DNA of 64,000 bases from a bacterium. GTDB taxonomy: Bacteria; Armatimonadota; Zipacnadia; Zipacnadales; Zipacnadaceae. A program made the position numbers and the translations under genes. This document shows positions 541 to 46,900 of this stretch, piece after piece (within the stretch, counting starts at the first letter, position 1; every line of letters starts with the position of its first letter). The DNA is taken from NCBI GenBank assembly GCA_030602615.1, contig JAUVZM010000005.1, positions 5,094 to 69,093 on the forward strand, given 5' to 3'. Under the pieces are notes generated by a model. It saw only the letters and a program-made list of their open reading frames with translations, searched no databases and was not told the origin of the DNA.

Positions 541-1338
541 TTGGGAGCACACCGCTTGAACATATTATTTATCGGTGATGTCGTCGGCCGGATCGGTCGC
601 AACGCGATAACTGACAATCTGGCCAGCCTAATTGGCGAATACGACATCGCCTTTACCATCATCAACGCAGAGAACGCGGCCGGAGGCTTCGGGTTGACAC
701 CTGACACGGCAGCACAGCTACTTGATGCCGGGGCCGACTGCCTGACTTCCGGTAACCATATCTGGGCACAAAAAGAGGCTGAACAACTGTTGGATAATGA
801 GCAGCGGGTGTTGCGTCCCGTTAACTATCCTCCAGGCGCGCCCGGCCGGGGCAGCGCAATCTATCAGACGAGCGAGGAGGTAAAGGTGGGCGTCATCAAT
901 CTACTGGGCCGTGTCTTTATGGAGCCAGTAGATTGTCCCTTCCGGTGCGCAGAGTTAGAGGTTGAGCAGATCAGCGAATCCAGCGACCTAATCGTAGTAG
1001 ACTTCCATGGCGAAGCCACCTCTGAGAAGCAGGCTATGGGCTATTTCCTGGACGGGAGAGTAACCGCTGTAATCGGTACTCACACCCACATTCAGACCGC
1101 CGATGAGAAGATCCTGGCCGGGGGCACAGCCTACATCACCGACTGCGGAATGACCGGCCCGGACGATACAGTCATCGGGATTGATAAGCAGACTATTATT
1201 GAGAAGTTTGTATCAGGCCGCCCCCAGCGCTTTGAGGTGCCCAAGTCAGGGCCTTGTCTAATATCAGGTGTAGTGATAGAATGTAATCTCCATACTGGGC
1301 TCGCCGAGACCATAGCGCGGATACATATCACTTACTAA
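541..1338 (+). CDS. ymdB: YmdB-like metallophosphoesterase (2',3'-cyclic-nucleotide phosphodiesterase family, TIGR00282-like)
   Basis: The motifs ILFIGDVVG, GNH and GTHTHIQTADE are typical of the calcineurin-like YmdB family. The gene sits immediately downstream of rny as in Bacillus and Thermus. The start is non-ATG (TTG), or possibly TTG at 556. Confidence 0.8.
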   Translation: MGAHRLNILFIGDVVGRIGRNAITDNLASLIGEYDIAFTIINAENAAGGFGLTPDTAAQLLDAGADCLTSGNHIWAQKEAEQLLDNEQRVLRPVNYPPGAPGRGSAIYQTSEEVKVGVINLLGRVFMEPVDCPFRCAELEVEQISESSDLIVVDFHGEATSEKQAMGYFLDGRVTAVIGTHTHIQTADEKILAGGTAYITDCGMTGPDDTVIGIDKQTIIEKFVSGRPQRFEVPKSGPCLISGVVIECNLHTGLAETIARIHITY

Positions 1339-1508
1339 TAGCAATGTTCCGCAACAGACTGCAGCAGGAATTGTGACCATTACGAAATATTGGTCTTGGA
1401 CTCAATATAGGTACGCCAGTAGCAACAATCGCAGAGCAATCATAGACAGCATCATTGCCATCACGACAATTCACATCGGCACAAGACATCACAAAAGGGG
1501 GAGTAGCG

Positions 1509-1772
1509 GTGAGCCTGCTCAGAGTAGGGTCTAAATCTGATCCGAACAAGGTTGCCGGAGCCATAGCTGGCACGATTAGAGAAGAGGACTCCTGTCAAGT
1601 GCAGACCATTGGCGCCGGTGCCCTCAACCAGGCCATTAAGGCCCTGGCGATTGCCCGCGGCTTCCTGGCTCCTTCGGGGATAGACCTAATCTGCTACCCC
1701 GCCTTTGTGGATGTAACTATAGACGGCAACGAGCGCACGGCTATCAAGCTATTCATAGAAGCACGGCAGTAA
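1509..1772 (+). CDS. spoVS: stage V sporulation protein S family protein
   Basis: The sequence VAGAIAGTIRE...IQTIGAGALNQAIKALAIARGFLAPSGIDLICYPAF...ERTAIKL aligns along its full length to SpoVS. The likely start is GTG at 1509, preceded by AAAGGGGGAG. The ORF-track start at 1455 lacks a ribosome-binding site. Confidence 0.8.
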   Translation: MSLLRVGSKSDPNKVAGAIAGTIREEDSCQVQTIGAGALNQAIKALAIARGFLAPSGIDLICYPAFVDVTIDGNERTAIKLFIEARQ

Positions 1773-1931
1773 CCAACAGGGCTGCGGCCGACTTAGGCAC
1801 AGCGCTACCAGTAAATAGAACCTCATTTGCGACGGACAGGAGCGGCAGCCAAGCGCGGTAGAGAGCAGGCTCGGGCTATACAATAGCCAACCACGATTCG
1901 CAATAGCAGTCAGGCCGCAGGAGCGCTAACA

Positions 1932-3620
1932 ATGAGAGCAGACCTAAGGTGGGAGAGGCGAGCTCCTCAGATTCTTACTTACGTCCTCATAGCCCTGGTT
2001 CTGATATTTCTCTACTTGATATTCATGGCGGGACGGTTCCACGGCCTTACCAATGAAAACGCCATGGACTACGCCCAAGTCGCCCAAAACCTGGCCCAGG
2101 GCGAAGGGTTTACCACCAACTTTATCAAGCCAATTAGTCTGACTCGCAATGCCAGCCTGGCTCGCCACCCGGACTTGACCTACCCCCCAATCCATCCCTG
2201 GTTTACTTCCCTGATTATGCGAGCCATGGGCACCAATGACCGGGCAGCAGCACTGGGCAGTGGAATTCCCTTCCTGCTAACTGTGCCCCTGGTGTTTGTG
2301 TTGACCGGTTGGATCTTCGACCGGCGAACTGCTTGGCTGGCGACGGCCCTGCACTTCACCAATATCGAGATCCTCCACTATGCTATCTCCGGACTGGAAG
2401 TGTGTTTGCTGTCGCTATGGCTGCTTGCACTTTTCATGGTACTGTATCAGTATGCCCAGCGCACCGACCTACAGCCAGCTCTGGCCGGCGCTGTCGGCCT
2501 GCTGATTGGTCTCATTTACCTGACTAAGTACATCTGGGTAGTGGCGCTCATCCCGGTGCTAATATACCTGTACTATTCAACCGAGGACCACACCCGAATT
2601 CGCACGCTCCTAGTGGTCGTTATAGTCTTTGCTGTAGTGATATCTCCGTGGTGTTACCGAACTTACCAGGTCAGCGGCAATCCCTTTTTCACCTGGCGCT
2701 GGTACGAGGTTACTATGAACACGCGGACAAATCCCGGCATGACCCTGTATCGCTCGCTGCCGGAAAAGCTCCCCAATCCGGTGACCTACGCCTTGATCCA
2801 CCCCATGGAGATCTATGAGAAGCTCCGTGCCGGGGTGGTCAATCTCTACAGTGTGCCAGCGCGAGTAGCTGGAGTCTACGCTACACCATTGTTCATTGTT
2901 GCCATTCTGGTGCCCTTGGGGACCGCCAACTTCGAAAGACTCAGGTATCTGCTTTACGGTGTGTTGGTGTTGATGATCGTCTCACTACTGTTCGTAGCAG
3001 CAGCTTCCCGACTGCTCTATCCGGTGGCTCCTCTTCTCACTGTAGTCGCCGCTGCCTTTTTCTTTCGGATTTTGCTGCCATTAGTTCAAGATTATGCCAG
3101 TCCGCTGCGACGGCGTTACACGGCGGTGGGGATTGGCGTACTGATGCTGCTGCATACCACCCCACTACTATTCGCGCTGACCACTCGCCGTCGTCCCGGG
3201 GACAGACCTCCGATACAGCAGAGCCAAGACTGGGCTGACCAAGCCCAAGAACTGGGCGGTTCGCCGATCATCACCGATCAGCCCTGGCTGCTGGCCTGGC
3301 ACAATGATATGACGGTGGTGTGGCTACCCAAGACCGGTGCCGACCTGAAGCGGATCCAACAGCGAGTTGGCCAGTTGCCATGGATGCTGCTGACTCCGGC
3401 AGTTACCCGCAATCAAGTCACCGAACGCACGGAGGAGTGGGCTCGACTGTGGCGACAAGCAGTGGCCCGAGAAGTCCCACCATACTACGGATTCGTGGTT
3501 GCCGAGCGCATAGGCGACGGGACGTGGGTGCTACTGCGCAAGAACCCACAGGCTGGCCCTGTTGCCCCTGCTGCGCCTGAATTGCCCGCCACAGATACAC
3601 TACAGTCATCGGAGCAGTAG
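1932..3620 (+). CDS. GT-C fold membrane glycosyltransferase (family 39/83, ArnT/PMT-like)
   Basis: About 11 predicted transmembrane helices form the N-terminal core. The first loop has the acidic motif ENAMDYAQVAQNL. A C-terminal soluble domain follows. The gene heads an operon with the zinc-ribbon protein and the exosortase. Confidence 0.6.
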   Translation: MRADLRWERRAPQILTYVLIALVLIFLYLIFMAGRFHGLTNENAMDYAQVAQNLAQGEGFTTNFIKPISLTRNASLARHPDLTYPPIHPWFTSLIMRAMGTNDRAAALGSGIPFLLTVPLVFVLTGWIFDRRTAWLATALHFTNIEILHYAISGLEVCLLSLWLLALFMVLYQYAQRTDLQPALAGAVGLLIGLIYLTKYIWVVALIPVLIYLYYSTEDHTRIRTLLVVVIVFAVVISPWCYRTYQVSGNPFFTWRWYEVTMNTRTNPGMTLYRSLPEKLPNPVTYALIHPMEIYEKLRAGVVNLYSVPARVAGVYATPLFIVAILVPLGTANFERLRYLLYGVLVLMIVSLLFVAAASRLLYPVAPLLTVVAAAFFFRILLPLVQDYASPLRRRYTAVGIGVLMLLHTTPLLFALTTRRRPGDRPPIQQSQDWADQAQELGGSPIITDQPWLLAWHNDMTVVWLPKTGADLKRIQQRVGQLPWMLLTPAVTRNQVTERTEEWARLWRQAVAREVPPYYGFVVAERIGDGTWVLLRKNPQAGPVAPAAPELPATDTLQSSEQ

Positions 3621-3623
3621 AAA

Positions 3624-4217
3624 TTGCCGACAAAGACTGACAGTCAGCAAAACCAGCAACAATGTTACCATTGTGGCGCTGAGCTGGCGCCGGGGATGCG
3701 GGTATGCCCTGTCTGCGGCCGCAAGCAAACGCGGACCTGCTATTGTGGGGCAGAGATTCCCGTAACCGCACGGACTTGTCCTGAGTGCGGTGCTGACTGG
3801 TCAGCCAGCCGGCGGGTGAGGCGCAAATCCAAATCCAAACGGATAGACTGGAAACAGTTAACTAAATCCGCAGTGATCGGCGCCCTTATCACTGCGCTGG
3901 CAGCCGCCGGGCTCAGCGCTATCGTCACAGCATTGGCCCGTCGCAGTCTGGACTACGGCCAGCCACTGCCGGCTTCATTTATCCAGCGTCTCTCACTGGC
4001 CCTGACGGCGATGTATAGAGCTGTGGCAACAGTGGCTGATCGCCTGGCCGAGCACGGTGCAGGAGCAGCGACACTGCTGGGGATATTGGTGCTGGGAGCC
4101 GGCGTCGGCGCCGTAGTCTATCTATTCCGTGAGGGCTTCTGGACTCGCTGGCGCTATCGCTCATCGAGCAAGATCAAGCGCAAACGCAGCTCCTCAACCA
4201 CGGACCAAGCAGATTAG
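3624..4217 (+). CDS. double zinc-ribbon membrane protein
   Basis: Two CxxC...CPxC zinc ribbons (CYHCGAE..CPVCG and CYCGAE..CPECG) are followed by two hydrophobic helices and a basic tail. The gene starts 3 nt after the glycosyltransferase stop and ends 2 nt before the exosortase. Confidence 0.55.
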   Translation: MPTKTDSQQNQQQCYHCGAELAPGMRVCPVCGRKQTRTCYCGAEIPVTARTCPECGADWSASRRVRRKSKSKRIDWKQLTKSAVIGALITALAAAGLSAIVTALARRSLDYGQPLPASFIQRLSLALTAMYRAVATVADRLAEHGAGAATLLGILVLGAGVGAVVYLFREGFWTRWRYRSSSKIKRKRSSSTTDQAD

Positions 4218-4219
4218 CA

Positions 4220-5110
4220 ATGGACAGTTTGCCAGCCGACCAAACCAGGACGTTGCCAAGCCCGCAGGCCGCCGACCAGGCTCCTTCTCCCATCCAGCTA
4301 ATCACAGTAGGTGCAGCGCTGCTGCTGGCCTACGGGCATTATATCCTGTGGATGGTCGAACGGTGGTGGGAAAGCCCCTACTACGGGCACGGCTTTCTGA
4401 TCCCCATTATCAGCGGTTACCTGATCTGGCGGGTGCGCGAGCGGCTGTGGCAGCTACCGCGCGAAGATTTCAATTGGGGAATAGTCATTGTGGCCGGCTC
4501 ACTGGTGGTGCATCTTGCTGCCAGCTTTGCCGACGTCCATTTTCCCTCGGGCTTTGCTCTGGTTGGAACAATCTTTGGGCTAGTGGTATGGCTGGGAGGA
4601 CGGGCATGGGGACAGATGCTGATCTTTCCGGTCGGCTTCCTGGCATTTATGGTGCCCCTGGGTCGAATCCTGGTCGAGCAGGTCGCCGGGCCTCTGCAAC
4701 TACTCTCCGCCCAACTGGGCGGCCAGGCCGTAGCAATGATTGGCGGGATAGTCAATATTGAAGGCACGCTCATCCGCACGCCGATCTACACCTTCGAGGT
4801 AGCCATTCCCTGCAGCGGACTAAAATCAACCATTGCTATGACTGCGCTGGCTGCCCTGTTTGCCTATCTGGTGGTGGCGCCGCGGTGGAAGAAGCTGGTG
4901 TTGTTCGTGTGCGCTTTTCCCGTAGCCTTGCTGGCCAACGCTGCCCGCATCTTCGTCACTGTGATTTTAGGTACAACTGTGGGGCCGGCTGTTGCTGAAG
5001 GCTTTTTTCACAGCGTTTCGGGTATTATTGTTTTTCTATTCGGCCTGACCGGTCTGTTCGTCGTGGGGAGAACCCTGGGATGTCTGCAACTGCGCGAAGA
5101 CATCTGGTAG
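4220..5110 (+). CDS. exosortase family protein (XrtA-like transpeptidase)
   Basis: The N-terminus WWESPYYGHGFLIP matches the exosortase start. The catalytic Cys motif AIPCSGLKS and Arg motif NAARIFVTV are present. There are about 8 transmembrane helices. EpsI overlaps directly downstream. Confidence 0.75.
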   Translation: MDSLPADQTRTLPSPQAADQAPSPIQLITVGAALLLAYGHYILWMVERWWESPYYGHGFLIPIISGYLIWRVRERLWQLPREDFNWGIVIVAGSLVVHLAASFADVHFPSGFALVGTIFGLVVWLGGRAWGQMLIFPVGFLAFMVPLGRILVEQVAGPLQLLSAQLGGQAVAMIGGIVNIEGTLIRTPIYTFEVAIPCSGLKSTIAMTALAALFAYLVVAPRWKKLVLFVCAFPVALLANAARIFVTVILGTTVGPAVAEGFFHSVSGIIVFLFGLTGLFVVGRTLGCLQLREDIW

Positions 5111-5733
5111 CCCTGATCATACTGCTGGCCGCGGCCGCAGCGGTGGAAGCCGTCCGCATCATGAGCAGCGCGCCGCCCGCCTTCGCACCCGATTTTGCCA
5201 CATTGCCGATGAAGATCGGTGACTACCAGGGCCAGAACCGCGAAGTTGACGAGTTTATCCGCAAGTATCTGGGCGCCGAACAGATGCTGGAACGCCTCTA
5301 CACCGGCCCAGACGGTTTGGTGAGCGTGACCCTGATCTACGGGGTGGACTGGCGCGACGTTCACTCGCCGGTAAGCTGCTTTCCTGCCCAGGGCTGGCTG
5401 ATCGTCGCTGACGACCCCATCCAGGTACCAGCCCCCGCCGACTCACCGACCCCGGGTGCCGTCCACGCCCGTCTGCTGCGGGTAGTCAAGAATGACCAGT
5501 ATCGGCTGGCTGCCTTCGCCTTCTGCCATCCCGGCGGTACCACCAGTAACTGGATCTACCAGGGATGGAAGGTACTTACCGGCCCACGCGGAGCCGGCGG
5601 AGTCATCGTCATCCTCGACACCGAACCAACCCCCGGCCTAGAACCTGCCCAGCAGCGCCTCAACCAGTTTCTGGCGGCCGTCTACCCCCACGCTGTCAGC
5701 TTCTGGTATCAGGAGCCACAGATCGGCAGTTGA
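5080..5733 (+). CDS. exosortase-associated EpsI family protein
   Basis: A signal or anchor helix is followed by the EpsI hallmark HSPVSCFPAQGW (H-x-P-x-x-C-[LF]-P-x-x-GW). The gene overlaps the exosortase by 31 nt. Confidence 0.7.
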   Translation: MSATARRHLVALIILLAAAAAVEAVRIMSSAPPAFAPDFATLPMKIGDYQGQNREVDEFIRKYLGAEQMLERLYTGPDGLVSVTLIYGVDWRDVHSPVSCFPAQGWLIVADDPIQVPAPADSPTPGAVHARLLRVVKNDQYRLAAFAFCHPGGTTSNWIYQGWKVLTGPRGAGGVIVILDTEPTPGLEPAQQRLNQFLAAVYPHAVSFWYQEPQIGS

Positions 5734-5742
5734 TCACAGGGC

Positions 5743-7317
5743 TCAGCGACCTGGCCCAAGTACGACGACCCCACTATTGCGGTATACAGGCTGCCAGCCG
5801 TGCGCCGCGGCCAGCTCCAGCAACTGGCGACGGGGCAGTGCGCGGGCCCATTGACCCTGGGGCGAGGTTGTCGGCACGGCCACCGCACCGACGCCATAAT
5901 GCCGCCAGACGCGCTCAAGGGCATCAGCATCATCGAAAGGAATCTGCACCACTGGCCGGTCACTGTAGAAACGTACCAGGTACGGGTAGTGTGCCATGAT
6001 AACGCTAGGGGCGGGCAATTGCTGCTTCGCCCAACCCGCCATTTCGATGTGAGCCTGCCGCGATGAGTTGGCCGACTGCTGGCTCACCCGCCAATAGACG
6101 TATCCGCCTATACCCACACAGGCTACCAGCAGCACGACAGCTAACAGACCCGCCTCAGCATCTCTGCGGATTGCCCAAATCCGTCGGGCTATTGTCATGC
6201 CCCCCGCGGCGGCACTGATTGCCACCACCGGTAGTACCGCCAGCAGATAACGAGGCAGGACGATCCAACTCAGCCCCAGCTCCAATATGAGCAGACCTGC
6301 AAAAACCCACAGATTTCTGACCCGGCGGTGATGACCCACACCCAATATGACAATCACACAGGGAACCACAAAGAACAGGCCAACGCCCCCGAACAGTAGG
6401 GCCAGAGCGCGGCCTAGTTGGCCAATAACCGTCGCAGCAGCCCCTGGCAGGCCTGCTTGACTGAGCCAGCCGCCCAGTGAGGGGAGCGGCTCGCCCCAGT
6501 AAACGTGTAGCAGCCCCTGGCCGGAAGCATCCGTCCTGATGTGCCCCGCGGTATGAATGTTTGTCGAATAGACAGGATTGCCAAAAGTCAGATGATTGCG
6601 TATCAGCATCGGCGAGGCAAACAGCAGGACGATGACAGCGAATCCGATCAAATGCAGAAGACGCCGTCGGGTGCTCAACCCGGCTTGATCCAGCCAGTAG
6701 TAGGCCGCCAGGGGAGCCACCAACAGTAGCCCGGCAGGCTTGATGGTACAGGCCAGACCGACAGCAGCCCCGGCCAGCAGTATTGCCCCCTTGCGCTCAC
6801 CAGCACAGAGGGCTGCTAATAATGCTAGCAGCAACAGGCTCGTGAAGAGGACATCGGCTCCGGCGTCCAGCGACTCTTTGAGCCAGTAAGGCCAGGCAAC
6901 GAACAGAATCCCGGCCGCCAGGCAAACTGCGGAGGGAAGTCTTAACTGCTGAACCAGCAGATACACCAGAACAGGAGCAAGCAACAGACCTAACAGCAGG
7001 TTGGGCAAGGTTGCTGCAAATTCACTTTGTCCAAACACCGCCATACTGCCGGCCAATACCAGTGACCATGCCGAGGGACGGCGGTCCTCGGCATGCTGGA
7101 CCGACTGGTAGCGGCGATAGAAATTGCCCACCACCTCGCTGGTCAGGCCCCGTCCAGCCAGCAGATTGCGGGCTACCTCCACATAATTGGCCGGATCATA
7201 CGCTCCCAGCCGCGGCGCGCGCCAAGCCGTAATGAGCCCCGCTACCAACATCAGCCCACAGACAGCAATGAGGATGTGGAAATGTCGGTTCCCTATTGGG
7301 TTGAGCTTTGCTGACAT
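5743..7317 (-). CDS. GT-C fold membrane glycosyltransferase (family 39-like, PMT_2 superfamily)
   Basis: The N-terminal loop motif AYDPANYVEVARNLLAGRG is ArnT/PMT-like. More than 10 transmembrane helices precede a C-terminal soluble domain. The gene is convergent with the exosortase operon. Confidence 0.6.
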   Translation of the reverse strand: MSAKLNPIGNRHFHILIAVCGLMLVAGLITAWRAPRLGAYDPANYVEVARNLLAGRGLTSEVVGNFYRRYQSVQHAEDRRPSAWSLVLAGSMAVFGQSEFAATLPNLLLGLLLAPVLVYLLVQQLRLPSAVCLAAGILFVAWPYWLKESLDAGADVLFTSLLLLALLAALCAGERKGAILLAGAAVGLACTIKPAGLLLVAPLAAYYWLDQAGLSTRRRLLHLIGFAVIVLLFASPMLIRNHLTFGNPVYSTNIHTAGHIRTDASGQGLLHVYWGEPLPSLGGWLSQAGLPGAAATVIGQLGRALALLFGGVGLFFVVPCVIVILGVGHHRRVRNLWVFAGLLILELGLSWIVLPRYLLAVLPVVAISAAAGGMTIARRIWAIRRDAEAGLLAVVLLVACVGIGGYVYWRVSQQSANSSRQAHIEMAGWAKQQLPAPSVIMAHYPYLVRFYSDRPVVQIPFDDADALERVWRHYGVGAVAVPTTSPQGQWARALPRRQLLELAAAHGWQPVYRNSGVVVLGPGR

Positions 7318-7520
7318 GATAGGCCCCCGGATGGCTACCTACCAACAGGCCCAAACAGAATTCAAGGCAACAGCGGCTGGGACCTTCATATCGGGGCAAC
7401 AGCGGGTCAGGTTAGCGGTTACAGGCCTCGACGAGGCAATGAGCAGACCACTGGCGCTATATGATGATTTTATGAGTTAACAGCATCTGCGCCAAGCAAG
7501 TAGCCGCCCACAGCTTGTGG

Positions 7521-9113
7521 CTATGGTTGGCGCTGCACAAACATCGCTGCCCCCCAGAGAATGACACAGATGAGCAGCAGGGGCAGGTCGCCGATGCGGT
7601 GGTAGATTGACAACCTGCTCAGAGGATAGACTTTGGCAACTGTCAGGCCTTCTTCGCCCGCGGCGACCTCGGCGATGCGCCGCCCATAGGGGTTGATTAT
7701 GGCCGAGGGACCCATAGTGGCGGCCCGCACCACATAGCGACGACTTTCGACGGCGCGTACTGAAGCGATGGCCCCGTGCTGGCGCAATTCCGGGCTGTAA
7801 GCCGCCCACGAGTCACTGGTTATGGCGACCAGAACCTGGGCGCCCTTGCGACACAACTCGCGGTTAGGCCCCGCGAAGATTGCCTCCCAACAGATCAGAG
7901 TGCCCAGCGGAACTTCGTCGTATACCCGGAGCAGATTACGCTTGGCTCCCGGCACGATGTTTTGCGAGCGGATCGGATAGCGGCCAACCAACCGGTTGAG
8001 GGGACCCAGGTTCGGGACGTATTCCCCGAACATGACCAGATCAACCTTGCGATAGATATCGATAAGTTTGCCCTCACCGGAAAAAAGATAGGCAGAATTA
8101 TGCACCTGGCCGCCAGCCGCCTCCAGGGCGCCCACCAGCAGGTGGGCGCCTGTCTCCTTCGCGACCTGCTTGACTTCGTCAAGGTACTCGGGTGATTCGT
8201 TGAGCGCCACCGGCAGGGAAGTCTCGGGCCAGACAATCAGATCAGCCAGTATGCGGTCAGCAGACTTGGACGTCATATTGACGTAGGCCAGTCGGCACCG
8301 CTCGGCATCCTCCTGGGTAGTGGGATGCTGTATCGCCACGTTAGCCTGCATCACAATGGTACTTAGCGGTTTGCCGGCGGCGATTTCTCTGACAGAGGGA
8401 GTGACAAATGATCCGCTTTGAATGACCACCGCCCCGCTCAGGATAACTCCAAACACCAGGGCCAGTCCTATGAACACGGGTTTGGCCATCTGGGGATGAG
8501 CCGACTGTCTGGCCTCAAGCTTTGCCAGATGGGTCTGGACAAATATGGAGGCGATCAGAGCATTGGCAAAGACTATGACCAGCGTGACGGCACCAGAACC
8601 CAGAACGCTGGCAATCTGCAGTAGCAACAGCATCTCGTATTGGCTGTAGGCTATATCGCCAAAGTTGACGGCCAGCGCCCCTATGTGGCTGCGGATATAC
8701 TCGACCAGAACCCAGGCAGCAGCCAGCGCCGCCGCGCGTAGCAGCAGGGACCTCACGGCCCGCAAATAGACTGCCAACCAGCCGAACACTGCAAAGAAGA
8801 ATCCCTGGAAGAGAGCCAGCAGAACCAGGGGCAGAACTCCGTACTGCGAGATATAGTAGAAGAACAGCCCGAAAAAGACCATTCCGTAGATGAGGCCGAC
8901 CACGCCGCCCTGCCAGGGCCTGCGTACCTGGCCCAGAACGTAGAAAAGCGGGATTAAGGCTATCCAGGCCACAGCAGCCATCTCGGCAGGAGGAAAACTG
9001 ACAAATAGCAGAACAGCCGATAGCACAGCGCCCGCTGCCATTACTATCCAGGAAGTTGACGAGGCCGGCCGGGAGTTATTAGACCCAACTGTTACAGATT
9101 GGAATGCAATCAT
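7521..9113 (-). CDS. lnt: apolipoprotein N-acyltransferase
   Basis: An N-terminal polytopic membrane part is followed by a CN-hydrolase domain with the motifs LIVWPETSLP, K and LICWEAIF (Glu-Lys-Cys triad). The length of 530 aa is typical. Confidence 0.8.
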   Translation of the reverse strand: MIAFQSVTVGSNNSRPASSTSWIVMAAGAVLSAVLLFVSFPPAEMAAVAWIALIPLFYVLGQVRRPWQGGVVGLIYGMVFFGLFFYYISQYGVLPLVLLALFQGFFFAVFGWLAVYLRAVRSLLLRAAALAAAWVLVEYIRSHIGALAVNFGDIAYSQYEMLLLLQIASVLGSGAVTLVIVFANALIASIFVQTHLAKLEARQSAHPQMAKPVFIGLALVFGVILSGAVVIQSGSFVTPSVREIAAGKPLSTIVMQANVAIQHPTTQEDAERCRLAYVNMTSKSADRILADLIVWPETSLPVALNESPEYLDEVKQVAKETGAHLLVGALEAAGGQVHNSAYLFSGEGKLIDIYRKVDLVMFGEYVPNLGPLNRLVGRYPIRSQNIVPGAKRNLLRVYDEVPLGTLICWEAIFAGPNRELCRKGAQVLVAITSDSWAAYSPELRQHGAIASVRAVESRRYVVRAATMGPSAIINPYGRRIAEVAAGEEGLTVAKVYPLSRLSIYHRIGDLPLLLICVILWGAAMFVQRQP

Positions 9114-9130
9114 AGCCGCAATAGTTCACC

Positions 9131-9451
9131 TCAGCAAGATGCCGCCGGGGCTGCCGGAGCTACGACTTTTCCTCTTGCCAGCTTCTTCAGGAAACGCTCT
9201 ATGCGAACAAGTGCCTCTTTCAGTTGCTCCAGGCCGGTGGCGTAGGTGCATCGTAAGTAGCCCTGACCACTGGCGCCAAAGGCAGTGCCAGGAACTACTG
9301 CCACCGCCTCTTCAAACAGCAATGCCCTGGCGAACTGTTCGGAGGTCAGGCCGGTATGCTCAACAGAGGGAAACGAGTAGAAAGCACCTTTCGGTTCCCC
9401 ACAGGGCAATCCGAGGCTATCACTGAGCAGTTCACAGCTCGATATAGCCAA
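9131..9451 (-). pseudogene. remnant of a class I aminotransferase (C-terminal ~100 aa only)
   Basis: The sequence KGAFYSFP...LLFEEAVAVVPGTAFG..GYLRCTYATGLEQLKEALVRIERFL is the canonical AspC-type C-terminus. There is no room for the ~300-aa PLP-binding N-terminal part, because secF occupies the upstream DNA in another frame. Confidence 0.5.
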
Positions 9452-9457
9452 ACCAGT

Positions 9458-10597
9458 CTAGAAGCGGCGTCTACTGCTCCTGTCGTGGCGGCGTTTGCGG
9501 CGCTCGCGCCGCTCTTCGCGCTTTTCCTCCTGGGCGTCCTCTTTAGCCTGCTGGATAGCATCTTCGCTGCTTACCTTCTCTGGTTCGCTCTTTTTCTCTG
9601 TGATCTGCTTCGGGCCGCCACCTCCCTCGCTGGCGGTTGCGCCGACGTAGGCGGGTCGCCGGCGGCGCTGCCTGGCAGTGACCTCGTCACGCTCCCACGC
9701 TACCACAATGGGGCTGGCAATGAATATGGAAGAGTATGCGCCGCTGGCAATCCCAACAATCAACGCCAGCGAGAATGCGTGGATGGCCGGCCCACCAAAG
9801 AAGAATAGAGCAATCAGAGCAAACAATGTTGTGACAGTAGTGTTGATCGAACGGGTCATTGTCTGCAGCAGGCTGGTGTTAGCAATCTCGGCAAATAGGC
9901 CGCCCCGATACAGCCGCATATTCTCCCTGATGCGGTCGAAGATCACCACGGAGTCATTTATTGAATAACCAATAATCGTCAGTATCGCCGCCACGAACTC
10001 GCTATTCAACTCAGCACCCAGCAGCGACATCACTCCGACCACTATTAACACGTCGTGGACGATGGCCACAACCCCAGCGACTCCGAAGCGCAGCTCATAG
10101 CGAATGGCAATGTAGATAAGGATCAGAATAGCACCAAGGATCAGCGCTAGCAGTGCGGTGTTGCGCAGCCGCTTGCCTACTATCGGGCCAACCAGATCGC
10201 GGCCCAAAACCTTGGGAGTGCCAGCCCGATCGCCGAAAAGCTCCCGGAGCCCTCCAGCTACTTGCTCAGCCTGCTGGGCAGCGGTATCTTCGTCCTGGGT
10301 GGCAGTGCGGATAAGCAATTCCGTCGTACCGGAGACCTGTATCTGACACTTGCTCAATCCATACTCATCGAGCATAGCCCGAGTTTGGGCAACAACAGTG
10401 GCAGCCGAATGCTGCGAATCCGTCAGCGAACGCTCAAAGCCATAGTTCACCAGTGTGCCCCCGGTGAAGTCTATGCCGTAGTTCATGCCCTTGCCAATCC
10501 AACTGATCAGCCCGGCACCTATCACGACCAGCGAGACAATCAACCACAGCCGGCTGCGGCCGATAATGTCGAAATTACTGCGGCGAAAAAAGTCCAA
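9458..10597 (-). CDS. secF: protein translocase subunit SecF, with a ~75-aa highly charged C-terminal tail
   Basis: Six transmembrane helices carry the SecF motifs GIDFTGG and GYSINDSVVIFDRIRE. A K/E/R-rich tail (EEKREERRERRKRRHDR) follows. The gene is immediately downstream of secD. Confidence 0.85.
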   Translation of the reverse strand: MDFFRRSNFDIIGRSRLWLIVSLVVIGAGLISWIGKGMNYGIDFTGGTLVNYGFERSLTDSQHSAATVVAQTRAMLDEYGLSKCQIQVSGTTELLIRTATQDEDTAAQQAEQVAGGLRELFGDRAGTPKVLGRDLVGPIVGKRLRNTALLALILGAILILIYIAIRYELRFGVAGVVAIVHDVLIVVGVMSLLGAELNSEFVAAILTIIGYSINDSVVIFDRIRENMRLYRGGLFAEIANTSLLQTMTRSINTTVTTLFALIALFFFGGPAIHAFSLALIVGIASGAYSSIFIASPIVVAWERDEVTARQRRRRPAYVGATASEGGGGPKQITEKKSEPEKVSSEDAIQQAKEDAQEEKREERRERRKRRHDRSSRRRF

Positions 10598-10640
10598 GTC
10601 AAGTAAACCTCCTCAGCAAATAGCGGCGAGAATACCAAGC

Positions 10641-12638
10641 CTATTGCTCTGCGCGGGGTTTGACCCCGTAAAGGGACAGATTCTGTCCCAATGAGGTCCG
10701 CCCTACCATCGTGATCATCCAGCGAGTCACCGTCACCGCGGTAAACAGCGACACACAGATTCCCAAAAACAGCACCACCGCGAAACTCTTAATCAGGCTG
10801 GTACCCAAGAAGTACAGCACTGCTGCCACAATGAGCGTAGTCACATTGGCGTCGAGGATGGCCGTCCAGGCGCGGTTGAATCCCGCCTCGACAGCCGAGC
10901 GCATGGTGCGCCCCGACCACAATTCCTCTTTCAGCCGCTCATAGATGATAACATTGGCATCCACGGCAAACCCAATTGACAGGATCAAGCCGGCTACCCC
11001 CGGCAGCGTCATAGTTGCTCCGACGAAGACCAGCACTGCCAGCAGCAAAAGTACGTACAAGATGAGCGCGACCCCCGCTACCATCCCCGGCAGGCGGTAG
11101 AATCCGATCATAAACAGAATCACAAATCCAAAAGCAATACCACCAGCGATTAGGCTACGGTTGATGGTATCCTGGCCCAGCGTGGCGCTGACGGTGCGAT
11201 TCTCGGCGATCTCCAGAGGCACCGGCAGGGCACCAGCATTCAGCAGCAGGGCGATATCGCCGGCCTCCTGCGCGTCGAAACTACCCTCAATCACACCCCG
11301 GCCCCCCGTGATAGGACTGCGAATGACTGGAGCCATCTGGCACTCCTCATCCAGCACGATGGCCATTATCCTGCCCACGTTGCGACGGGTGAAGTCGCCG
11401 AAAGCGGTTGATTTCTCAGCCCTCAGCTCAAAGGCAACCACAAAGTCCATGGCCTGGCCGGGCTGAGGCCGGGCATTGCTCTTCAGATCAGCGCCGGTGA
11501 AGGCCTGCTCGGAGCTGTGATAGACCTGCTGCCAGGGTACCACGTCATTGCTGGCCTCGTCTATCCACTGGCTGTAGTCACCAGCTTCCGCCGCCCCCCC
11601 AGCGAGGGTGTAGCGCGCAGGAATGAGTCGAAATTCAAGCTGAGCTGTGCTCTGAAGAATACCCAGTACGCGCTGGGGATCCTTGACGCCAGGTAGCTCG
11701 ACGATAATCTGGTCGTCGCCCTGCTGCTGAATGACCGGCTCGCGGATATCGCTCATCGCGTACAGACGCCGGCTTACAATATTCTTGACCTTGTCGGCGG
11801 TATTCTTCCCGATAAAGACAGTCTCTGGGTCCTTCTTTTTAATCTCCACCCCCGGATAGTTGCTCTGCAGGAATTGGTAAACTATCTCCTGATGCTTCTC
11901 GACAGTACTTTTGTCATTTGCTCGCGTCCTTACTACCAGTAGACCGGGTGTCGGCACCTCCACAGTGATCTCATCGGCGGGCACCCCCTTACGCACCAGC
12001 ACGGCCTTGACTTTTTCCCGCAGGCTGGCCCGCGTTTCCCCGGGCTGATAGCCCTGGAGCTGGTTTGACTCGTCCTCCGTGGCGGCCTCCTGGTCAAGCC
12101 TCACCAGCGGCTTGTCCTCAGGTGAAGTAAAATGCATGGTAGCCTGGGACAGACAGCGCAGCACTACGTGAGCTCCCCCCTGCAGATCCAGTCCCAGCTT
12201 AATCTGGGGGCTTGGCGGATAAATAGCCAGATTGTCAAACGGCTGCCACAGGGGTTGCTGGCCCGCTTGTGAGGGTGGTGTTTGCGGCTGGCCAACTCCC
12301 TCAAAGTTCTCCTGCAGAATCTGGGTGACTGCTTGTTTGTCTTTCTGTGCCTCTTCATCGGTAACCGCCGCAGTCTCGACTTCCAGCGTGGAGTTATCAA
12401 GCAGAGTCACCGACATAGTGACCACACCGGCCTCTTCCAGCAGCTTCTGAATCTGCTCGGACTTGGCAAAGCGCTGGGCTGCATCAGAAACCAGCGGCTC
12501 AGCAAACGGGTAGCGGAAGGTGCTCTGTACGGTAAAGCCACCTCCCTCCGGAGATTGGATTGGGGCAAACCCCATCAGGAAACTAACAGCAAACAGAAGA
12601 ATGATTGTTGCAATCCAATATTTGTGCCGAGCTGGCAT
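10641..12638 (-). CDS. secD: protein translocase subunit SecD
   Basis: An N-terminal transmembrane helix and a large periplasmic P1 domain are followed by the C-terminal 5-transmembrane bundle with SecD/SecF family motifs. The gene is upstream of secF. Confidence 0.85.
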   Translation of the reverse strand: MPARHKYWIATIILLFAVSFLMGFAPIQSPEGGGFTVQSTFRYPFAEPLVSDAAQRFAKSEQIQKLLEEAGVVTMSVTLLDNSTLEVETAAVTDEEAQKDKQAVTQILQENFEGVGQPQTPPSQAGQQPLWQPFDNLAIYPPSPQIKLGLDLQGGAHVVLRCLSQATMHFTSPEDKPLVRLDQEAATEDESNQLQGYQPGETRASLREKVKAVLVRKGVPADEITVEVPTPGLLVVRTRANDKSTVEKHQEIVYQFLQSNYPGVEIKKKDPETVFIGKNTADKVKNIVSRRLYAMSDIREPVIQQQGDDQIIVELPGVKDPQRVLGILQSTAQLEFRLIPARYTLAGGAAEAGDYSQWIDEASNDVVPWQQVYHSSEQAFTGADLKSNARPQPGQAMDFVVAFELRAEKSTAFGDFTRRNVGRIMAIVLDEECQMAPVIRSPITGGRGVIEGSFDAQEAGDIALLLNAGALPVPLEIAENRTVSATLGQDTINRSLIAGGIAFGFVILFMIGFYRLPGMVAGVALILYVLLLLAVLVFVGATMTLPGVAGLILSIGFAVDANVIIYERLKEELWSGRTMRSAVEAGFNRAWTAILDANVTTLIVAAVLYFLGTSLIKSFAVVLFLGICVSLFTAVTVTRWMITMVGRTSLGQNLSLYGVKPRAEQ

Positions 12639-15221: not shown

Positions 15222-16610
15222 ATGACCAAGCACAGAGTACTGTTGTGTTTAGTTGTTGTAGTGCTCGCAGCCCCAGCTTATGCTGGAGGTGACCCCGTTG
15301 GAACGGTCCCCCCTGATCACTGGGCCTACGACGCTGTCAAGGAGCTGGTGGACGCGGGAATACTGATCGGTTATCCCGACGGGGCCATTCGTGGCAATCA
15401 GCCCATGACTCGGTACGAGTTCGCGATGGCCATCAGCCGCCTGATGGCTGCCCTCGAAATGACGGGTGTCGCTGGTCCCCAGGGCCCCGCCGGCCGGCAC
15501 GGTGCCACTGGCCCAGCAGGTCCGGCTGGTGCCCATGGCCCGGCATCGGCAGCGCCACCTGCTACAGTGGTAGCAGCCGCGCCCGCAGGTGCCACCGCGG
15601 CAGCTCCTGCCGCCAGCGATAAGTGGTACGACCGGATGTCGGTTGACGGGTACTTGCAAACGCGCTATGAGGACCGGGATATGGGTTCTTCTTCTGGCCC
15701 CAGCGCTGCGAACATGGGCAGCGATGGTGAGCATGACGGGTTTTACCTGCCGCGTTTGCATGTCAGCCTGCGGGCCGATGTCAACGAGCGAACCAAGGCC
15801 GTAGTGACCTGGTCACGTCTGGGCAGTACGAGCTCGCGGCCGCAGTGGACCACTGACTGGACGGACATCTACCTGGACTACGCTTATAGCGACAAGTGGA
15901 CAGTCCGCCTCGGCCAGGCGCCCAACTGGTTTGGGCTGGAGGGCGCGCAAGACTCTTCGGACCGCATGTCCCTGGAGCGAGCTGCCTTCCTGACTCGTAT
16001 CCCCGAAACTGGCGGGCCGGGCTGGAAGGACGGAGTGTACCACGCAGGTCGGTGGGACCGCGGCGTGTGGTTCGTCCGCCATCGCAAGAGCACCGGCGGG
16101 CCTCAGATCATACTGGGCCTAACTAACGGTAGCTTCCGGGATGTGGAGGGCAATAGCAACAAGACCCTATCGGCAGATCTGAAGTGGAAGCGGCCCTGGG
16201 GGCAGTACGGGGTTAGTTGGCTGGATGGCAAGACCAGTTATTCTCCGGACAGGGACCGCAACGCGCTGCTGGGGTATGTGCGCTGGGCGCGACCTGACCA
16301 GCGTTGGGCGGCACAGGCCGAGTATATGGACGGCAAGCTGCACGGCGACAACGTCGACGGCTGGTATGGCCAGTTCGAGTATCGGTTGACGAAGAATCCG
16401 ACGTGGGCCTTCGTCAAGTTGGAGGAGTTTAACCCCACGGACGATGCCAAGTACGATGCTGTGCACCTCGGTCTGACCAAGCAGCTAGACGCGAACAACG
16501 AACTCACCCTGCAGTGGACCGATGCCGATTGCGATTACAGGCGTAGAGGCAGTGATAGGACCCGCAAGAAGGACCTAATCGGCCTGCAGTGGCAGATGAT
16601 GTTCGACTAG
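15222..16610 (+). CDS. SLH-domain outer-membrane porin (OmpM/Slp-like) with a collagen-like linker
   Basis: A signal peptide is followed by the SLH motif PPDHWAYDAVKELVDAGILIGYPDGAIRGNQPMTRYEFA. Eight consecutive Gly-X-Y triplets follow (GPQGPAGRHGATGPAGPAGAHGPA). The C-terminal region is rich in alternating aromatics and ends with an F-terminal beta-barrel signature. Confidence 0.75.
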   Translation: MTKHRVLLCLVVVVLAAPAYAGGDPVGTVPPDHWAYDAVKELVDAGILIGYPDGAIRGNQPMTRYEFAMAISRLMAALEMTGVAGPQGPAGRHGATGPAGPAGAHGPASAAPPATVVAAAPAGATAAAPAASDKWYDRMSVDGYLQTRYEDRDMGSSSGPSAANMGSDGEHDGFYLPRLHVSLRADVNERTKAVVTWSRLGSTSSRPQWTTDWTDIYLDYAYSDKWTVRLGQAPNWFGLEGAQDSSDRMSLERAAFLTRIPETGGPGWKDGVYHAGRWDRGVWFVRHRKSTGGPQIILGLTNGSFRDVEGNSNKTLSADLKWKRPWGQYGVSWLDGKTSYSPDRDRNALLGYVRWARPDQRWAAQAEYMDGKLHGDNVDGWYGQFEYRLTKNPTWAFVKLEEFNPTDDAKYDAVHLGLTKQLDANNELTLQWTDADCDYRRRGSDRTRKKDLIGLQWQMMFD

Positions 16611-30956: not shown

Positions 30957-31754
30957 TCATTCGTCAGCAAGTCGGTCGGCAGCCAGTTGCGCGGCCTTCT
31001 GGCCGGACAGGAACATACCGCCGAATATCGCTCCCATGCGCGGGGCGCCGGCCGCAGCATTGGCGGCCATCCCCGCCACTATTACGCCGGGGTAGACTTC
31101 CTTAGTCAGCTCGACGATATGGCCTTCAGCTTCAGTGGCATTCATCGAACTCTCGCCGGCTATCTGACCGGTAGGAGTATCGAACTCAGCACCAGCAATC
31201 TTGCGCTCGATGGTTCGCAGCACGTCCGCGTCATGACCAGTGGCATCAATGACCAGTCGTGCGCTGACCGCCAGCGGGTCTACGTGCATCTGGGCGCGCT
31301 GCACCGCATCCCAGTTCAGTACCACCCCACAGACCCGAGCGTGCTCATCAATCACTACGTCCTCAACCAGCATACCCACCCAGATATGGGCGCCAGCGTC
31401 TACCGCGGCAGCAGTGCATTTGGATACACATTCGACTGAATCGGCCACGTGATAACCCTCGCCTGCCTGCTGGACACTGACCCCGACTTCCTTGACGAGC
31501 TGCACGGCCTCATCCTGAATAACTATGCGCGGAAAGAGCATGCCTCCGCCCCACATGCCCCCGCCCACATGCAGGTTACGCTCGAATACTGCCACTTGAT
31601 AACCAGCCTCGGCCAGCAGCCGCGCCGCGGTTATGCCGGAGGGCCCGGCGCCGACCACGGCTACATCCAGGCGCGTGTCGGCTACAAAATCTTCAGCAAA
31701 GCTTCTGACGATAAAACGAGTAACTCGGGTTTCATCAATGTGACGCAGTGACAT
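30957..31754 (-). CDS. thi4: thiazole synthase Thi4 family (His-type, sulfide-dependent; ADP-thiazole synthase)
   Basis: The FAD/NAD fold motif VAVVGAGPSGITAARLLAEAG and the Thi4 motif GGGMWGGGMLF are present. The active-site region DATGHDADV has His where yeast THI4 has its suicide Cys. A TPP riboswitch precedes the gene. Confidence 0.8.
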   Translation of the reverse strand: MSLRHIDETRVTRFIVRSFAEDFVADTRLDVAVVGAGPSGITAARLLAEAGYQVAVFERNLHVGGGMWGGGMLFPRIVIQDEAVQLVKEVGVSVQQAGEGYHVADSVECVSKCTAAAVDAGAHIWVGMLVEDVVIDEHARVCGVVLNWDAVQRAQMHVDPLAVSARLVIDATGHDADVLRTIERKIAGAEFDTPTGQIAGESSMNATEAEGHIVELTKEVYPGVIVAGMAANAAAGAPRMGAIFGGMFLSGQKAAQLAADRLADE

Positions 31755-31775: not shown

Positions 31776-31925
31776 TAGGTCTGCCAGCGGAGAAACCGGT
31801 CCTCCCGAGGACCGATTGAGAAGTGTAGTTTCGCGGAGCACTTCCCTTCGCCGGCATTATCCGGATCAGGTTCATGGGGTCAGCGGCCCGGCCGCTTTCT
31901 CAGCAAGCAAGCTCCCCCAGTTGCC
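31776..31925 (-). promoter_or_regulatory. TPP (THI-box) riboswitch in the thi4 leader
   Basis: The minus-strand RNA reads ...CUGAGAaagcgg...ACCCcaugAACCUGAUCcGGAUAAUGCCgGCGaAGGGAAg..., matching the THI-element consensus. A downstream hairpin (cagaccu...aggucug) includes the GAGGAGG SD and precedes the thi4 ATG. Confidence 0.75.
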
Positions 31926-31973
31926 AACATTTCCGTGTTATTATAGGCCCGCGGGTCTCCCCCACAGGCTCGT

Positions 31974-43948: not shown

Positions 43949-46900
43949 GTGGCTGATGATACCATCCGCATTCGGGGCGCCGCCCAACACAATTTGCGTA
44001 AGGTTGACCTCGATCTGCCGAAGAACCGCCTTATTGTTTTCACTGGCATCAGCGGCTCGGGCAAGTCATCCCTGGCCTTTGATACCTTGTTTGCCGAGGG
44101 GCAACGGCTGTATGTGGAGTCGCTTTCCACCTATGCCCGGCAGTTTCTCCAGGAGATGCCCCGCCCGCAGGTGGATAGCATCGAGGGGCTGGCCCCGGCT
44201 GTAGCCATTGACCAGGCCAAACGCAGCCATAATCCTCGCTCGACAGTAGCCACTATCACCGAGATATACGATCACCTGCGGGTGCTGTTCGCCGCCATCG
44301 GCACGCTGCATTGCCCTAAGTGTGGGCGCGAAGTAGGCGCCCAAACTCGGGAAAGTGTGATACAGCGTATCGTCGGCCTGGCCAGCGAGAGCACCATGCA
44401 GATTCTGGCACCGCTGGAGCGTGGGCGCAAGGGCCAGTTCAAGGAACTCTTCGCCGACCTGCGGCAAGCAGGCTACGCTCATGCCCGCGTGGATGGCCGG
44501 TTCATCCACCTTACTGAACCCCCGGAACTGGACCGCTACCGCCGTCATGACGTTGAGGTGGTGGTTGACCGGCTGGCGGCTGGTGCACACTCCCCCAGCC
44601 GCATAGGCGAGGCCATCGACATTGCCTTTGATCTGGGTGAGGGTAATCTCATCGCAGTGCCCGAAGACGGTGAGGATATCCTGTTTAGCCGCAATTTCGC
44701 CTGCCCCGACTGTCAGATCAGCATCCCCGAGCCTACCCACACCTCGTTTTCGTTCAACAGCCCCCGCGGTATGTGCCCGACCTGCGAGGGCCTCGGTGAG
44801 GCCCGCACCATTGACCCGGAACTGCTGGTCGCTCATCCCGACAGGTCGCTGGCCTCCGGGGCGATACCGCTACTGAGGTCGCTGCGCAGCGCCCGCCGCC
44901 GCCACTGGTATCAGGGCGTCGCCGACCATTACGGATTCACCCTCGACACGCCCTGGAAGGAGCTAACTGAGAAGCAACGCCACGCCTTACTGTATGGTTC
45001 CGGCGAGGAACTGATTGAGTTTTACTATCGCCATGCCCGCCACGGCTGGGAGTGGCGCCACGCTGATGTATGGGAGGGGATAATTCCCGGGCTGACGCAC
45101 CGGTACAAACGGGCTGAGTCCCGCCTGCTGCGCCAGCGTTTCGAGCAGGTCATCCGCCAGCAGCCGTGCCCCGACTGCCACGGTCAGCGGCTGCGCCCCG
45201 AGAGCCTGGCAGTGACCATCGGAGGGAAGTCAATCGCCGCCATTACCGGCCTCACTGTAGATCAGGCCGGCGAGTTCTTTGCCAAGCTAACACTCAACGA
45301 AAACGACGCACTCATAGCCGAAGACGCTCTTAAGGAGATCACGGAGCGGCTGTCGTTTCTGAAAGAGGTGGGTCTGCACTACCTGACGCTGGATCGCACT
45401 GCACCGACCCTATCCAGCGGCGAAGCCCAGCGCATCCGCCTGGCCGGACAGGTGGGCAGCGGCCTGACTGATTGCCTCTATGTCCTGGATGAGCCCAGCA
45501 TCGGCCTGCACTACCGTGACCAGGGGCGCCTGCTGGAGGCACTCAAACGACTACGGGATCTGGATAACACGGTGATCGTCGCTGAGCACGACGAGCAGAC
45601 CATCACCAATGCTGACTATGTTGTGGACTTTGGTCCGGGAGCAGGTGCCCAGGGCGGCCAGATTGTCAGCGTCGGCACTGTAACAGAAATAAAGAACGAT
45701 TTAGACTCGCTGACCGGCGACTATCTGGCCGGACGGCGCAGCATCCCGATTCCCAGTCAGCGTCGTGACGGCAACGGGGCCAGCCTGACACTGTGCGGAG
45801 CCCAGCACAATAACCTGAAGGATATAGATGTGAAATTCCCGCTGGGCCGGTTTGTTTGCATCACCGGCGTGTCAGGCTCAGGCAAGAGTTCGCTGATTGC
45901 CGACACCCTCCATCCGATTCTGGCCGCCGAGCTACACAGCGCCGAGACTGAGCCGGGGGAGTTTGATCATCTCGAAGGTATTGAGAACGTGCGTAAGGTG
46001 GTGATGATTGACCAGTCACCGATCGGCCGCACCCCGCGAAGCTGCCCGGCCACCTACACCAAAGTCTTCGACGATATCCGCCGGCTGTACGCGCAACTGC
46101 CTGCCTCGCGGGAACGCGGCTATACGCCTGGCCGATTCAGCTTCAACGTTAAGGAGGGCCGCTGCCCCCACTGCGACGGCTACGGCGCCGTCAAGCTACA
46201 ATCGGATTTCCTGGCTGACGTGTGGGTGCAATGTGAAGAGTGTCATGGACAGCGGTTCGACCGGGAAACGCTAACCATTCAGTACAAGGGCGCCGGCATC
46301 GCTGAGGTGCTGGATATGGAGGTCAGCCGGGCGCTGGAGCACTTCGCTAATGTTCCCAAAATCAAGCGGGTGCTGCAGGTCCTGGCCGATGTCGGGCTGG
46401 GCTACATCAAGCTGGGACAGTCGGCAACTACCCTCTCCGGCGGCGAGGCCCAGCGAGTCAAGCTGGCCCGCGAGCTGGCCCGTCCCCAGCAGGGCGACTG
46501 CCTGTATCTGCTTGATGAACCTACCACCGGCCTGCACTTTGAGGATGTCCGCCATCTGCTGGCCCTGCTGGGACGGATGGTGGACGGCGGTAATACTGTA
46601 ATCATCATCGAGCACCATCCTGACATCATCAAGACAGCCGATTATGTAATTGATCTGGGGCCGGAGGGTGGCGAGGAAGGCGGCGAGGTGGTCGCGACAG
46701 GTACCCCGGAGCAGGTCGCCAAATGCCGCCGCTCGCACACCGGTCAACTGCTCGACCAGATACTCAACGGTGCCGACGGGAGCCAGCCAATCCCACGAGT
46801 TGGCACTCAGCGGCGCAGTAGCCAGCCCAAATGTGAGGCCATCCAAGTGTGGGGCGCCCGCGAGCATAATCTCAAGAATATCAGCGCCAGGGTCCCCCGC

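Follow-up and report, generated by a model that had tools for sequence, protein, structure and literature searches.

At positions 1932 to 7317 of a 64,000-nt stretch of the Armatimonadota contig JAUVZM010000005.1 (GCA_030602615.1), referred to here as the window, an exosortase gene and the gene of its partner EpsI are preceded, on the same strand, by genes encoding a GT-C-fold membrane glycosyltransferase (GT-C1) and a double zinc-ribbon membrane protein (ZnR). These four same-strand genes are designated here as the cassette, and a second GT-C gene (GT-C2), which is convergent, lies outside this core. The cassette was shown to recur across the phylum as a single unit, and GT-C1 and ZnR appear to be phylum-specific, apparently undescribed partners of the exosortase/EpsI pair. 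The five genes are arranged as follows:

1932..3620, plus strand: GT-C1, an ArnT-like GT-C-fold membrane glycosyltransferase and the first gene of the cassette (562 aa; Pfam PMT_2, E 9.7e-11)
3624..4217, plus strand: ZnR, a membrane protein with a double zinc ribbon (197 aa, with TTG as start codon; matches to Pfam DZR at E 3.5e-8 and to Zn_Ribbon_1 at E 1e-9)
4220..5110, plus strand: an XrtA-like exosortase (296 aa; Pfam Exosortase_EpsH, E 9.7e-61, 205.8 bits)
5080..5733, plus strand: an EpsI-family exosortase partner, anchored in the membrane at its N-terminus and possessing a periplasmic domain (217 aa; Pfam DUF3485/EpsI, E 9.2e-21)
5743..7317, minus strand: GT-C2, a second PMT_2/ArnT-like GT-C membrane protein, convergent with the cassette (524 aa; Pfam PMT_2, E 4.5e-12)

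All five open reading frames (ORFs) described in an earlier note on this DNA were recovered at the coordinates given there, and their identities were confirmed with Pfam. The operon-like packing and the convergence of the second GT-C gene reported there were likewise borne out, with gaps of 3 nt between GT-C1 and ZnR and of 2 nt between ZnR and the exosortase gene, a 31-nt overlap between the exosortase and EpsI genes, and 9 nt between the stop codons of EpsI and the convergent GT-C2. Within the window, the genes surrounding the locus (RNase Y, YmdB, SpoVS, Lnt and SecDF) have housekeeping or envelope functions, and it is not situated inside an exopolysaccharide (EPS) biosynthesis locus, the setting typical of XrtA. 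No Rfam elements were found near the cassette, and a promoter and terminator scan over positions 1300-7700 yielded nothing informative.

Genomic contexts of related exosortases were retrieved by exact protein look-up and by scanning a single genome for each GTDB species (54 loci), with loci being annotated using profiles iterated from the window proteins. Counts refer to non-redundant loci and, for the upstream genes, to loci with at least 2.5 kb of upstream sequence. In 42 of 45 related loci, GT-C1 and ZnR were located upstream of the exosortase gene and shared its strand, and EpsI was encoded directly after the exosortase in every locus where this was scored (52/52). The close relatives of the exosortase were all derived from Armatimonadota (among them Candidatus Zipacnadia, Armatimonadia and bins labelled 'WS1'). 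The four-gene core was retained despite wholly different flanks, for example with an amino-acid permease upstream and a SurA-like isomerase downstream, with ACT/DUF711 genes upstream, or with sigma-factor genes upstream, and the linkage was shown to hold down to 42-50% identity. As the same gene order recurs at this frequency, including between unrelated flanks, the arrangement is not a product of chance, and the four genes represent one conserved unit.

The association was also observed in the reverse direction. Both GT-C1 homologues that were checked for context sit in the cassette, as does the most distant ZnR homologue on a long contig (38% identity), while the nearest outgroup of GT-C1, a non-orthologous GT-C with 26% identity, has no adjacent exosortase gene. 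The homologue search with GT-C1 returned 59 close matches, after which the score falls from 346 to 93 bits, and the ZnR family comprises 40 detectable members. Both families are therefore narrow, and wherever their context was checked they were seen only inside the cassette. Pairwise identities of the cassette proteins were found to correlate with those of the exosortase (r = 0.93 for GT-C1, 0.92 for EpsI and 0.74 for ZnR), a co-divergence that fits inheritance as one unit.

GT-C2 behaves differently from this core. It was present in 8 of the 44 related loci with room for it, all of which belong to a sub-lineage with RNase Y-YmdB-SpoVS synteny upstream, and it shares 22% identity and a similar general architecture with GT-C1 (PMT_2, PF13231, scores of 46.9 and 42.6 bits, respectively, against a gathering threshold of 26.1). 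The earlier note had counted this second GT-C among the partners of the system; the comparison shows it to be a lineage-specific neighbour that lies outside the conserved core and would be a further envelope glycosyltransferase found in a single sub-lineage.

The exosortase carries the catalytic residues Cys198 (AIPCSGLKS), Arg243 (NAARI) and His264 (FFHSVSG), the first two of which lie in motifs already pointed out in the earlier note, and all three were invariant in alignments of 14 and subsequently 51 relatives. It exceeded the cut-offs of PF09721 (205.8 bits; cut-off 25.7), of the generic NCBIfam 8TM_EpsH model TIGR02602 (152.2 bits; cut-off 105.55) and of the TIGR04178 signature (68.7 bits; cut-off 23), whereas none of the curated Xrt subfamily cut-offs in NCBIfam was passed. 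The best subfamily model was XrtA (TIGR03109), with 193.3 bits against a cut-off of 208, and XrtW, XrtD, XrtV, XrtB and others scored far below theirs. XrtA was the top-scoring model for all clade members scored, and ten relatives reached 168-217 bits with this model, P0042 alone exceeding 208. The outcome is borderline, and the window protein can be described as XrtA-like but not be called an XrtA. Judged by these profile scores, the exosortase is an XrtA-like Armatimonadota branch at the edge of XrtA, neither a member of a curated subfamily nor a distant new type. With members of the clade on either side of the XrtA cut-off, one would by default still expect classical PEP-CTERM cargo from genes located elsewhere. 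The AlphaFold2 model (mean predicted local distance difference test score, pLDDT, 88.6) is that of an all-helical membrane protein, and neither a sequence search of the PDB nor a fold search with the model identified a related solved structure. EpsI, in turn, matched PF11984 (74.9 bits; cut-off 26.1) and fell just under the cut-off of TIGR02914 (37.5 versus 42.8 bits).

The suggestion of the earlier note that these genes form an unusual exosortase subsystem holds in part. The protein passes no Xrt subfamily cut-off and is accompanied by a conserved upstream GT-C and zinc-ribbon gene, as opposed to being a member of a well-described subfamily beside GT-C genes that are not conserved with it, while the exosortase itself is nearly canonical XrtA and in this respect not unusual.

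ZnR exceeded the thresholds of both zinc-ribbon families (DZR, PF12773, 33.9 bits, threshold 27.3; Zn_Ribbon_1, 38.3 bits, threshold 25), and an identical 197-aa gene call was obtained on an independent assembly. Eight Cys residues, conserved in 48 cassette homologues, form two CxxC...CxxC/CxC ribbons, which are followed by a basic linker, a transmembrane (TM) hairpin with a loop of ~45 aa and an Arg/Lys-rich C-terminal tail. Following the positive-inside rule, ZnR is predicted to adopt an N-in/C-in topology, with both the ribbons and the tail in the cytoplasm. No NCBIfam model matched ZnR or GT-C1. ZnR was also considered as a substrate of the exosortase and was rejected, as it has no conserved motif before the second TM helix, no signal peptide and predicted cytoplasmic N-terminal ribbons.

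Cargo of the exosortase was sought among all ORFs with a strict and a loose PEP-CTERM regular expression and with a motif-free scan for a C-terminal 'TM helix plus basic tail'. The sample, with 880 kb of non-redundant sequence, comprised the window plus 66 loci and is biased to the same neighbourhoods, and the scans were run without a positive-control genome. In the window, both types of scan confirmed the observation of the earlier note that no ORF has a PEP-CTERM tail. How telling such a result is depends on the expected density of cargo genes: at the density of very PEP-CTERM-rich genomes (Haft et al. 2006, Table 1, PMC1569441) several matches would be expected in 880 kb, while at ~10 cargo genes per genome a count of zero in 880 kb is unremarkable. 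The absence of cargo from a 64-kb window says little about the genome. Neither the window nor the larger sample contains such a tail, which would place any cargo at a distance from the cassette.

One of the related loci, L065, encodes three tandem paralogous proteins with Big_2 and NHL repeats (~530-540 aa; 7596-12542, minus strand) that are convergent on its cassette. These were examined as candidate cargo and rejected, as they are lipoproteins with lipobox-containing N-termini and no C-terminal sorting tail.

The outcome of these scans is also what would be expected if the cassette were a module without cargo or with a single substrate. The exosortase-like enzyme of this lineage would then have ceased to sort a family of PEP-CTERM proteins. 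Its target, shared with GT-C1, would be either one dedicated membrane substrate or an intermediate of glycan or lipid nature, as might arise when a surface glycoconjugate is assembled, with ZnR as the substrate or a subunit that mimics it. No PEP-CTERM tail occurs in 880 kb from cassette-bearing genomes, the cassette is self-contained and often far from EPS genes, and the C-terminus of ZnR, a TM helix followed by an Arg/Lys tail, has the layout of a sorting signal. Against this, ZnR lacks a PEP-like motif before its second TM helix as well as a signal peptide, its ribbons are predicted to be cytoplasmic, and the exosortase retains a full catalytic triad and a near-XrtA sequence. Moreover, ~10 cargo genes per genome could plausibly have been missed in a sample with the above bias. 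Such a module is considered quite improbable.

GT-C1 was modelled with high confidence (AlphaFold2, pLDDT 89.9), and a Foldseek search against the PDB placed ArnT (5F15 and 5EZM) at the top, with E-values of 8.5e-10 and 6.6e-9 over the full length and a TM score of ~0.55; a probability of 1.0 was returned for ArnT, AglB, STT3, AftA, DPY19, ALG and PglB. A sequence profile search of the PDB with GT-C1 gave no match. Among 32 homologues, Asp46 is invariant and Asp41 is conserved in at least 90%. The model helices (residues 6-35 and 42-55) place Asp46 in the loop after the first TM helix, which is the predicted first periplasmic loop, and by this placement, as opposed to an alignment, Asp46 may be the equivalent of the catalytic Asp of ArnT. 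A small C-terminal periplasmic alpha/beta domain contains a Trp-rich motif of invariant residues (D449, P451, W452 and W456) and, in addition, the invariant W464. The full-length ArnT fold match, together with the invariant Asp46 and this motif, indicates that GT-C1 is probably an active ArnT-like GT-C.

Glycosylation of the O-mannosyl type, as proposed in the earlier note, would make GT-C1 a protein O-glycosyltransferase that decorates exosortase cargo. Consistent with this are the PMT_2 assignment, the inclusion of protein glycosyltransferases in the GT-C class (AglB, STT3, PglB and DPY19 being among the fold matches), the Trp-rich motif of the periplasmic domain (D449, P451, W452, W456), and the enrichment of PEP-CTERM proteins in glycosylation-prone residues reported in a 2025 study (PMC12188702). 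The structural comparison argues otherwise, with yeast Pmt1/2 (6P25) matching the GT-C1 model partially (E 0.05-0.08, TM score 0.28), compared with the full-length match to ArnT. In addition, Pfam detected neither a PMT (PF02366) nor a MIR domain in GT-C1, the protein has neither the WWDYG motif of oligosaccharyltransferases nor a large periplasmic domain, and no cargo is at hand in which glycosylation-prone regions could be found. The O-mannosyl-type assignment is accordingly not upheld, and a role of GT-C1 as an O-glycosyltransferase of cargo is regarded as decidedly unlikely.

Taken together, the reading preferred here, to which about an even chance is given, is that the cassette represents an Armatimonadota version of XrtA/EpsI sorting, to which two dedicated inner-membrane partners have been added and with which they are passed on as a single operon. 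The four genes would act in a single pathway, in which sorting by the exosortase and glycosylation by GT-C1 would be functionally coupled. The cargo would consist of secreted proteins whose genes lie elsewhere in the genome and which carry a PEP-CTERM-type anchor at the C-terminus. They would be exported through Sec and then be held in the inner membrane, where the exosortase, together with EpsI, would cut the anchor through a thioester at Cys198 and hand the protein to an acceptor. On the periplasmic face, GT-C1 would use a polyprenyl-phosphate sugar donor to glycosylate a molecule of the same pathway, preferably, in line with ArnT-like acceptor chemistry, a glycolipid or glycan to which the cargo is transferred or by which it is kept in place or, as a second choice, Ser/Thr-rich regions of the cargo itself. 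ZnR, with its cytoplasmic ribbons and membrane hairpin, may serve as a scaffold or regulatory subunit.

Several observations weigh against this reading. Operon conservation and co-divergence are also expected of any vertically inherited neighbours and do not by themselves prove a shared pathway. A sub-clade of exosortases at 42-46% identity (L044, L047, L056 and L057) is encoded in xrt-epsI loci without GT-C1, indicating that GT-C1 is dispensable for this type of exosortase, and one further locus (L049) retains ZnR but not GT-C1. The cassette contains neither a polyprenyl-phosphate sugar synthase (GT2) nor a flippase. As regards cargo, the number of PEP-CTERM-like tails in the window and the 66 loci is zero, and the only 'TM plus basic' tails in the same sample belonged to Lnt, to the exosortases, to a small number of unrelated membrane proteins and to spurious ORFs.

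The exosortases that lack GT-C1 are also accommodated if the locus consists of an ordinary XrtA/EpsI pair and bystanders. GT-C1 would then be an ArnT-type modifier of envelope lipids or lipopolysaccharide (LPS), ZnR would be unrelated, and both would share a housekeeping envelope operon with the pair without a role in sorting. The near-canonical XrtA sequence of the exosortase is in agreement with this, as are the best structural match of GT-C1, a lipid A-modifying enzyme, and the setting of the cassette, where the surrounding genes (RNase Y, YmdB, SpoVS, Lnt, SecDF) serve housekeeping or envelope functions. What the bystander explanation accounts for less readily is that the linkage survives full turnover of the flanks and divergence to 42-50% identity, that, in the contexts checked, no member of the GT-C1 or ZnR orthogroup turned up outside the cassette while the nearest outgroup GT-C is not exosortase-linked, and that mere neighbours are rarely linked phylum-wide at a spacing of 2-3 nt. 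It is viewed as unlikely, though it is the main alternative.

The preferred reading of a sorting system with two dedicated partners could be extended to a minimal and self-contained 'cleave-and-attach' machine, by analogy with the transfer of an amino sugar to a lipid by ArnT. GT-C1 would, on the periplasmic side, put a nucleophile-bearing sugar on an envelope glycolipid or glycan, and the acyl-enzyme of the exosortase would be resolved onto this sugar, thereby tethering the cargo covalently, while ZnR would link the complex to a signal from the cytoplasm. This more specific proposal is itself unlikely; if true, it would reveal both the long-sought acceptor in exosortase transpeptidation and the enzyme responsible for its synthesis.

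The genes downstream of EpsI were also recorded. In ~13 related loci, all from one Armatimonadota sub-lineage, EpsI is directly followed by a gene for a PF02397 phosphoglycosyl transferase (~200 aa), located in the respective loci as follows:

L008, 11575-12258: PF02397 gene after EpsI
L009, 11549-12166: PF02397 gene after EpsI
L057, 11561-12160: PF02397 gene after EpsI
L065, 7025-7618: PF02397 gene after EpsI
~9 further loci: PF02397 gene after EpsI

This gene is often followed by genes for a CHASE2-adenylate/guanylate cyclase and a FecR-domain protein. The PF02397 gene and its cyclase/FecR neighbours hint that the cassette is connected with a lipid-linked glycan pathway and receives a signalling input, and the presence of the PF02397 gene next to EpsI counts in favour of the preferred reading.

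Within the GT-C1-less loci, an ORF of one conserved family follows EpsI in L044, L049 and L056; the member in L044 (6198-8765) encodes a PQQ-like beta-propeller protein of 855 aa whose C-terminal domain is of the FlgD_ig type. Two xrt-epsI loci, L047 and L056, both without GT-C1 and ZnR, are derived from one metagenome-assembled genome (VGFC01), and their exosortase ORFs can be read with an N-terminal extension of ~220 aa, which may be an ORF-calling artefact.

When compared with described systems, the cassette most closely resembles XrtA/EpsI (PMC1569441; TIGR03109, TIGR02602, TIGR02914), with which it shares an 8-TM exosortase with a Cys/Arg/His centre and an adjacent EpsI gene. EpsH and EpsI of organisms with PEP-CTERM proteins are almost always encoded in EPS loci, which include PF02397 sugar transferases, and PF02397 is among the exosortase-correlated EPS gene families (Haft et al. 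2006, PMC1569441); the PF02397 gene of the ~13 related loci is thus placed as in EPS-linked XrtA loci. Unlike XrtA systems, the window exosortase scores under the XrtA cut-off (193 versus 208 bits), lies outside an EPS locus and has no PEP-CTERM genes nearby. PrsK, PrsR and PrsT are not encoded in the cassette and were not noticed close to it, the window as a whole not having been scanned systematically with those models. The ArnT-like GT-C and the zinc-ribbon TM protein are additions that were not found described for XrtA systems, and full-text literature searches retrieved no paper tying exosortases to Armatimonadota or to GT-C, ArnT or PMT enzymes.

GT-C1 resembles ArnT (GT83, undecaprenyl-phosphate-L-Ara4N:lipid A transferase; 5F15/5EZM) in its length, in its multi-TM GT-C core with a small C-terminal periplasmic domain and in a conserved acidic residue in the first external loop. 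It differs in that identity is 15-16%, that no arn-type donor-synthesis genes are adjacent and that its genomic partner is an exosortase and not a set of lipid A modification genes.

Archaeosortase A, acting on PGF-CTERM proteins, and rhombosortase, acting on GlyGly-CTERM proteins, attach their cargo to lipid. In type IX secretion (T9SS), PorU attaches cargo to anionic lipopolysaccharide (A-LPS) via a linking sugar (PMC7468200). All three couple removal of a sorting signal to transfer onto an envelope lipid or glycan that needs dedicated glycosyl enzymes, as is proposed here for the cassette. The T9SS enzymes are unrelated to those of the cassette, while archaeosortase A and rhombosortase are distant homologues with other signals, and in none of these systems are the glycosyl enzymes known to be operonic with the sortase. 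Multi-component extracytoplasmic GT-C systems, as outlined in two accounts (PMC11127046, PMC8035078), comprise a polyprenyl-phosphate sugar synthase, a flippase and a GT-C. As would be the case for GT-C1 under the present proposal, their GT-C uses a lipid-linked sugar outside the cytoplasmic membrane on an envelope polymer. Compared with the systems as outlined there, the cassette is without a GT2 synthase and a GtrA-type flippase, and its GT-C is partnered by an exosortase, by EpsI and by a hairpin protein with zinc ribbons.

Additional features of the window concern the envelope of the host and genes unrelated to the cassette. A secreted 462-aa protein with an N-terminal SLH domain and a porin domain (Porin_O_P) is encoded at 15222-16610 (plus strand) and resembles the OmpM-type tether between outer membrane and peptidoglycan of deep-branching diderm bacteria. 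Together with Lnt (7521-9113), this protein suggests that the host of the cassette has a two-membrane envelope. A 106-aa ORF at 9131-9451 (minus strand) matches only positions 286-361 of the 361-position PF00155 profile (class I/II aminotransferase), i.e. its last ~75 positions. The syntenic relative L002 encodes a full 402-aa aminotransferase and an AsnC-type regulator between lnt and secF, and the ORF therefore appears to be a deletion remnant. Elsewhere, a 2088-aa ORF (43949-50215, plus strand), in which the UvrA interaction domain and the UvrA DNA-binding domain each occur twice, looks like a tandem fused double UvrA, and a thiamine pyrophosphate (TPP) riboswitch (31826-31928, minus strand; Rfam RF00059, 68.6 bits) lies directly upstream of a Thi4-family thiazole synthase gene (30957-31754, minus strand).

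Exosortases were predicted in 2006, and both the attachment target of their cargo and the glycosylation route of PEP-CTERM proteins are still open (PMC1569441; PMC12188702). The 2025 study proposed that an exosortase may join PEP-CTERM proteins to polysaccharide 'or some other molecule', which is unproven (PMC12188702). If the coupling considered here is not functional, the cassette would be no more than an envelope operon conserved in a phylum that has received little study. The phylum-wide operon narrows the question of sorting and glycosylation to four genes, and GT-C1 and ZnR represent two uncurated families that are possible markers associated with exosortase systems. A connection between sorting by exosortases and glycosylation has long been suspected, and the cassette is a concrete candidate for it.

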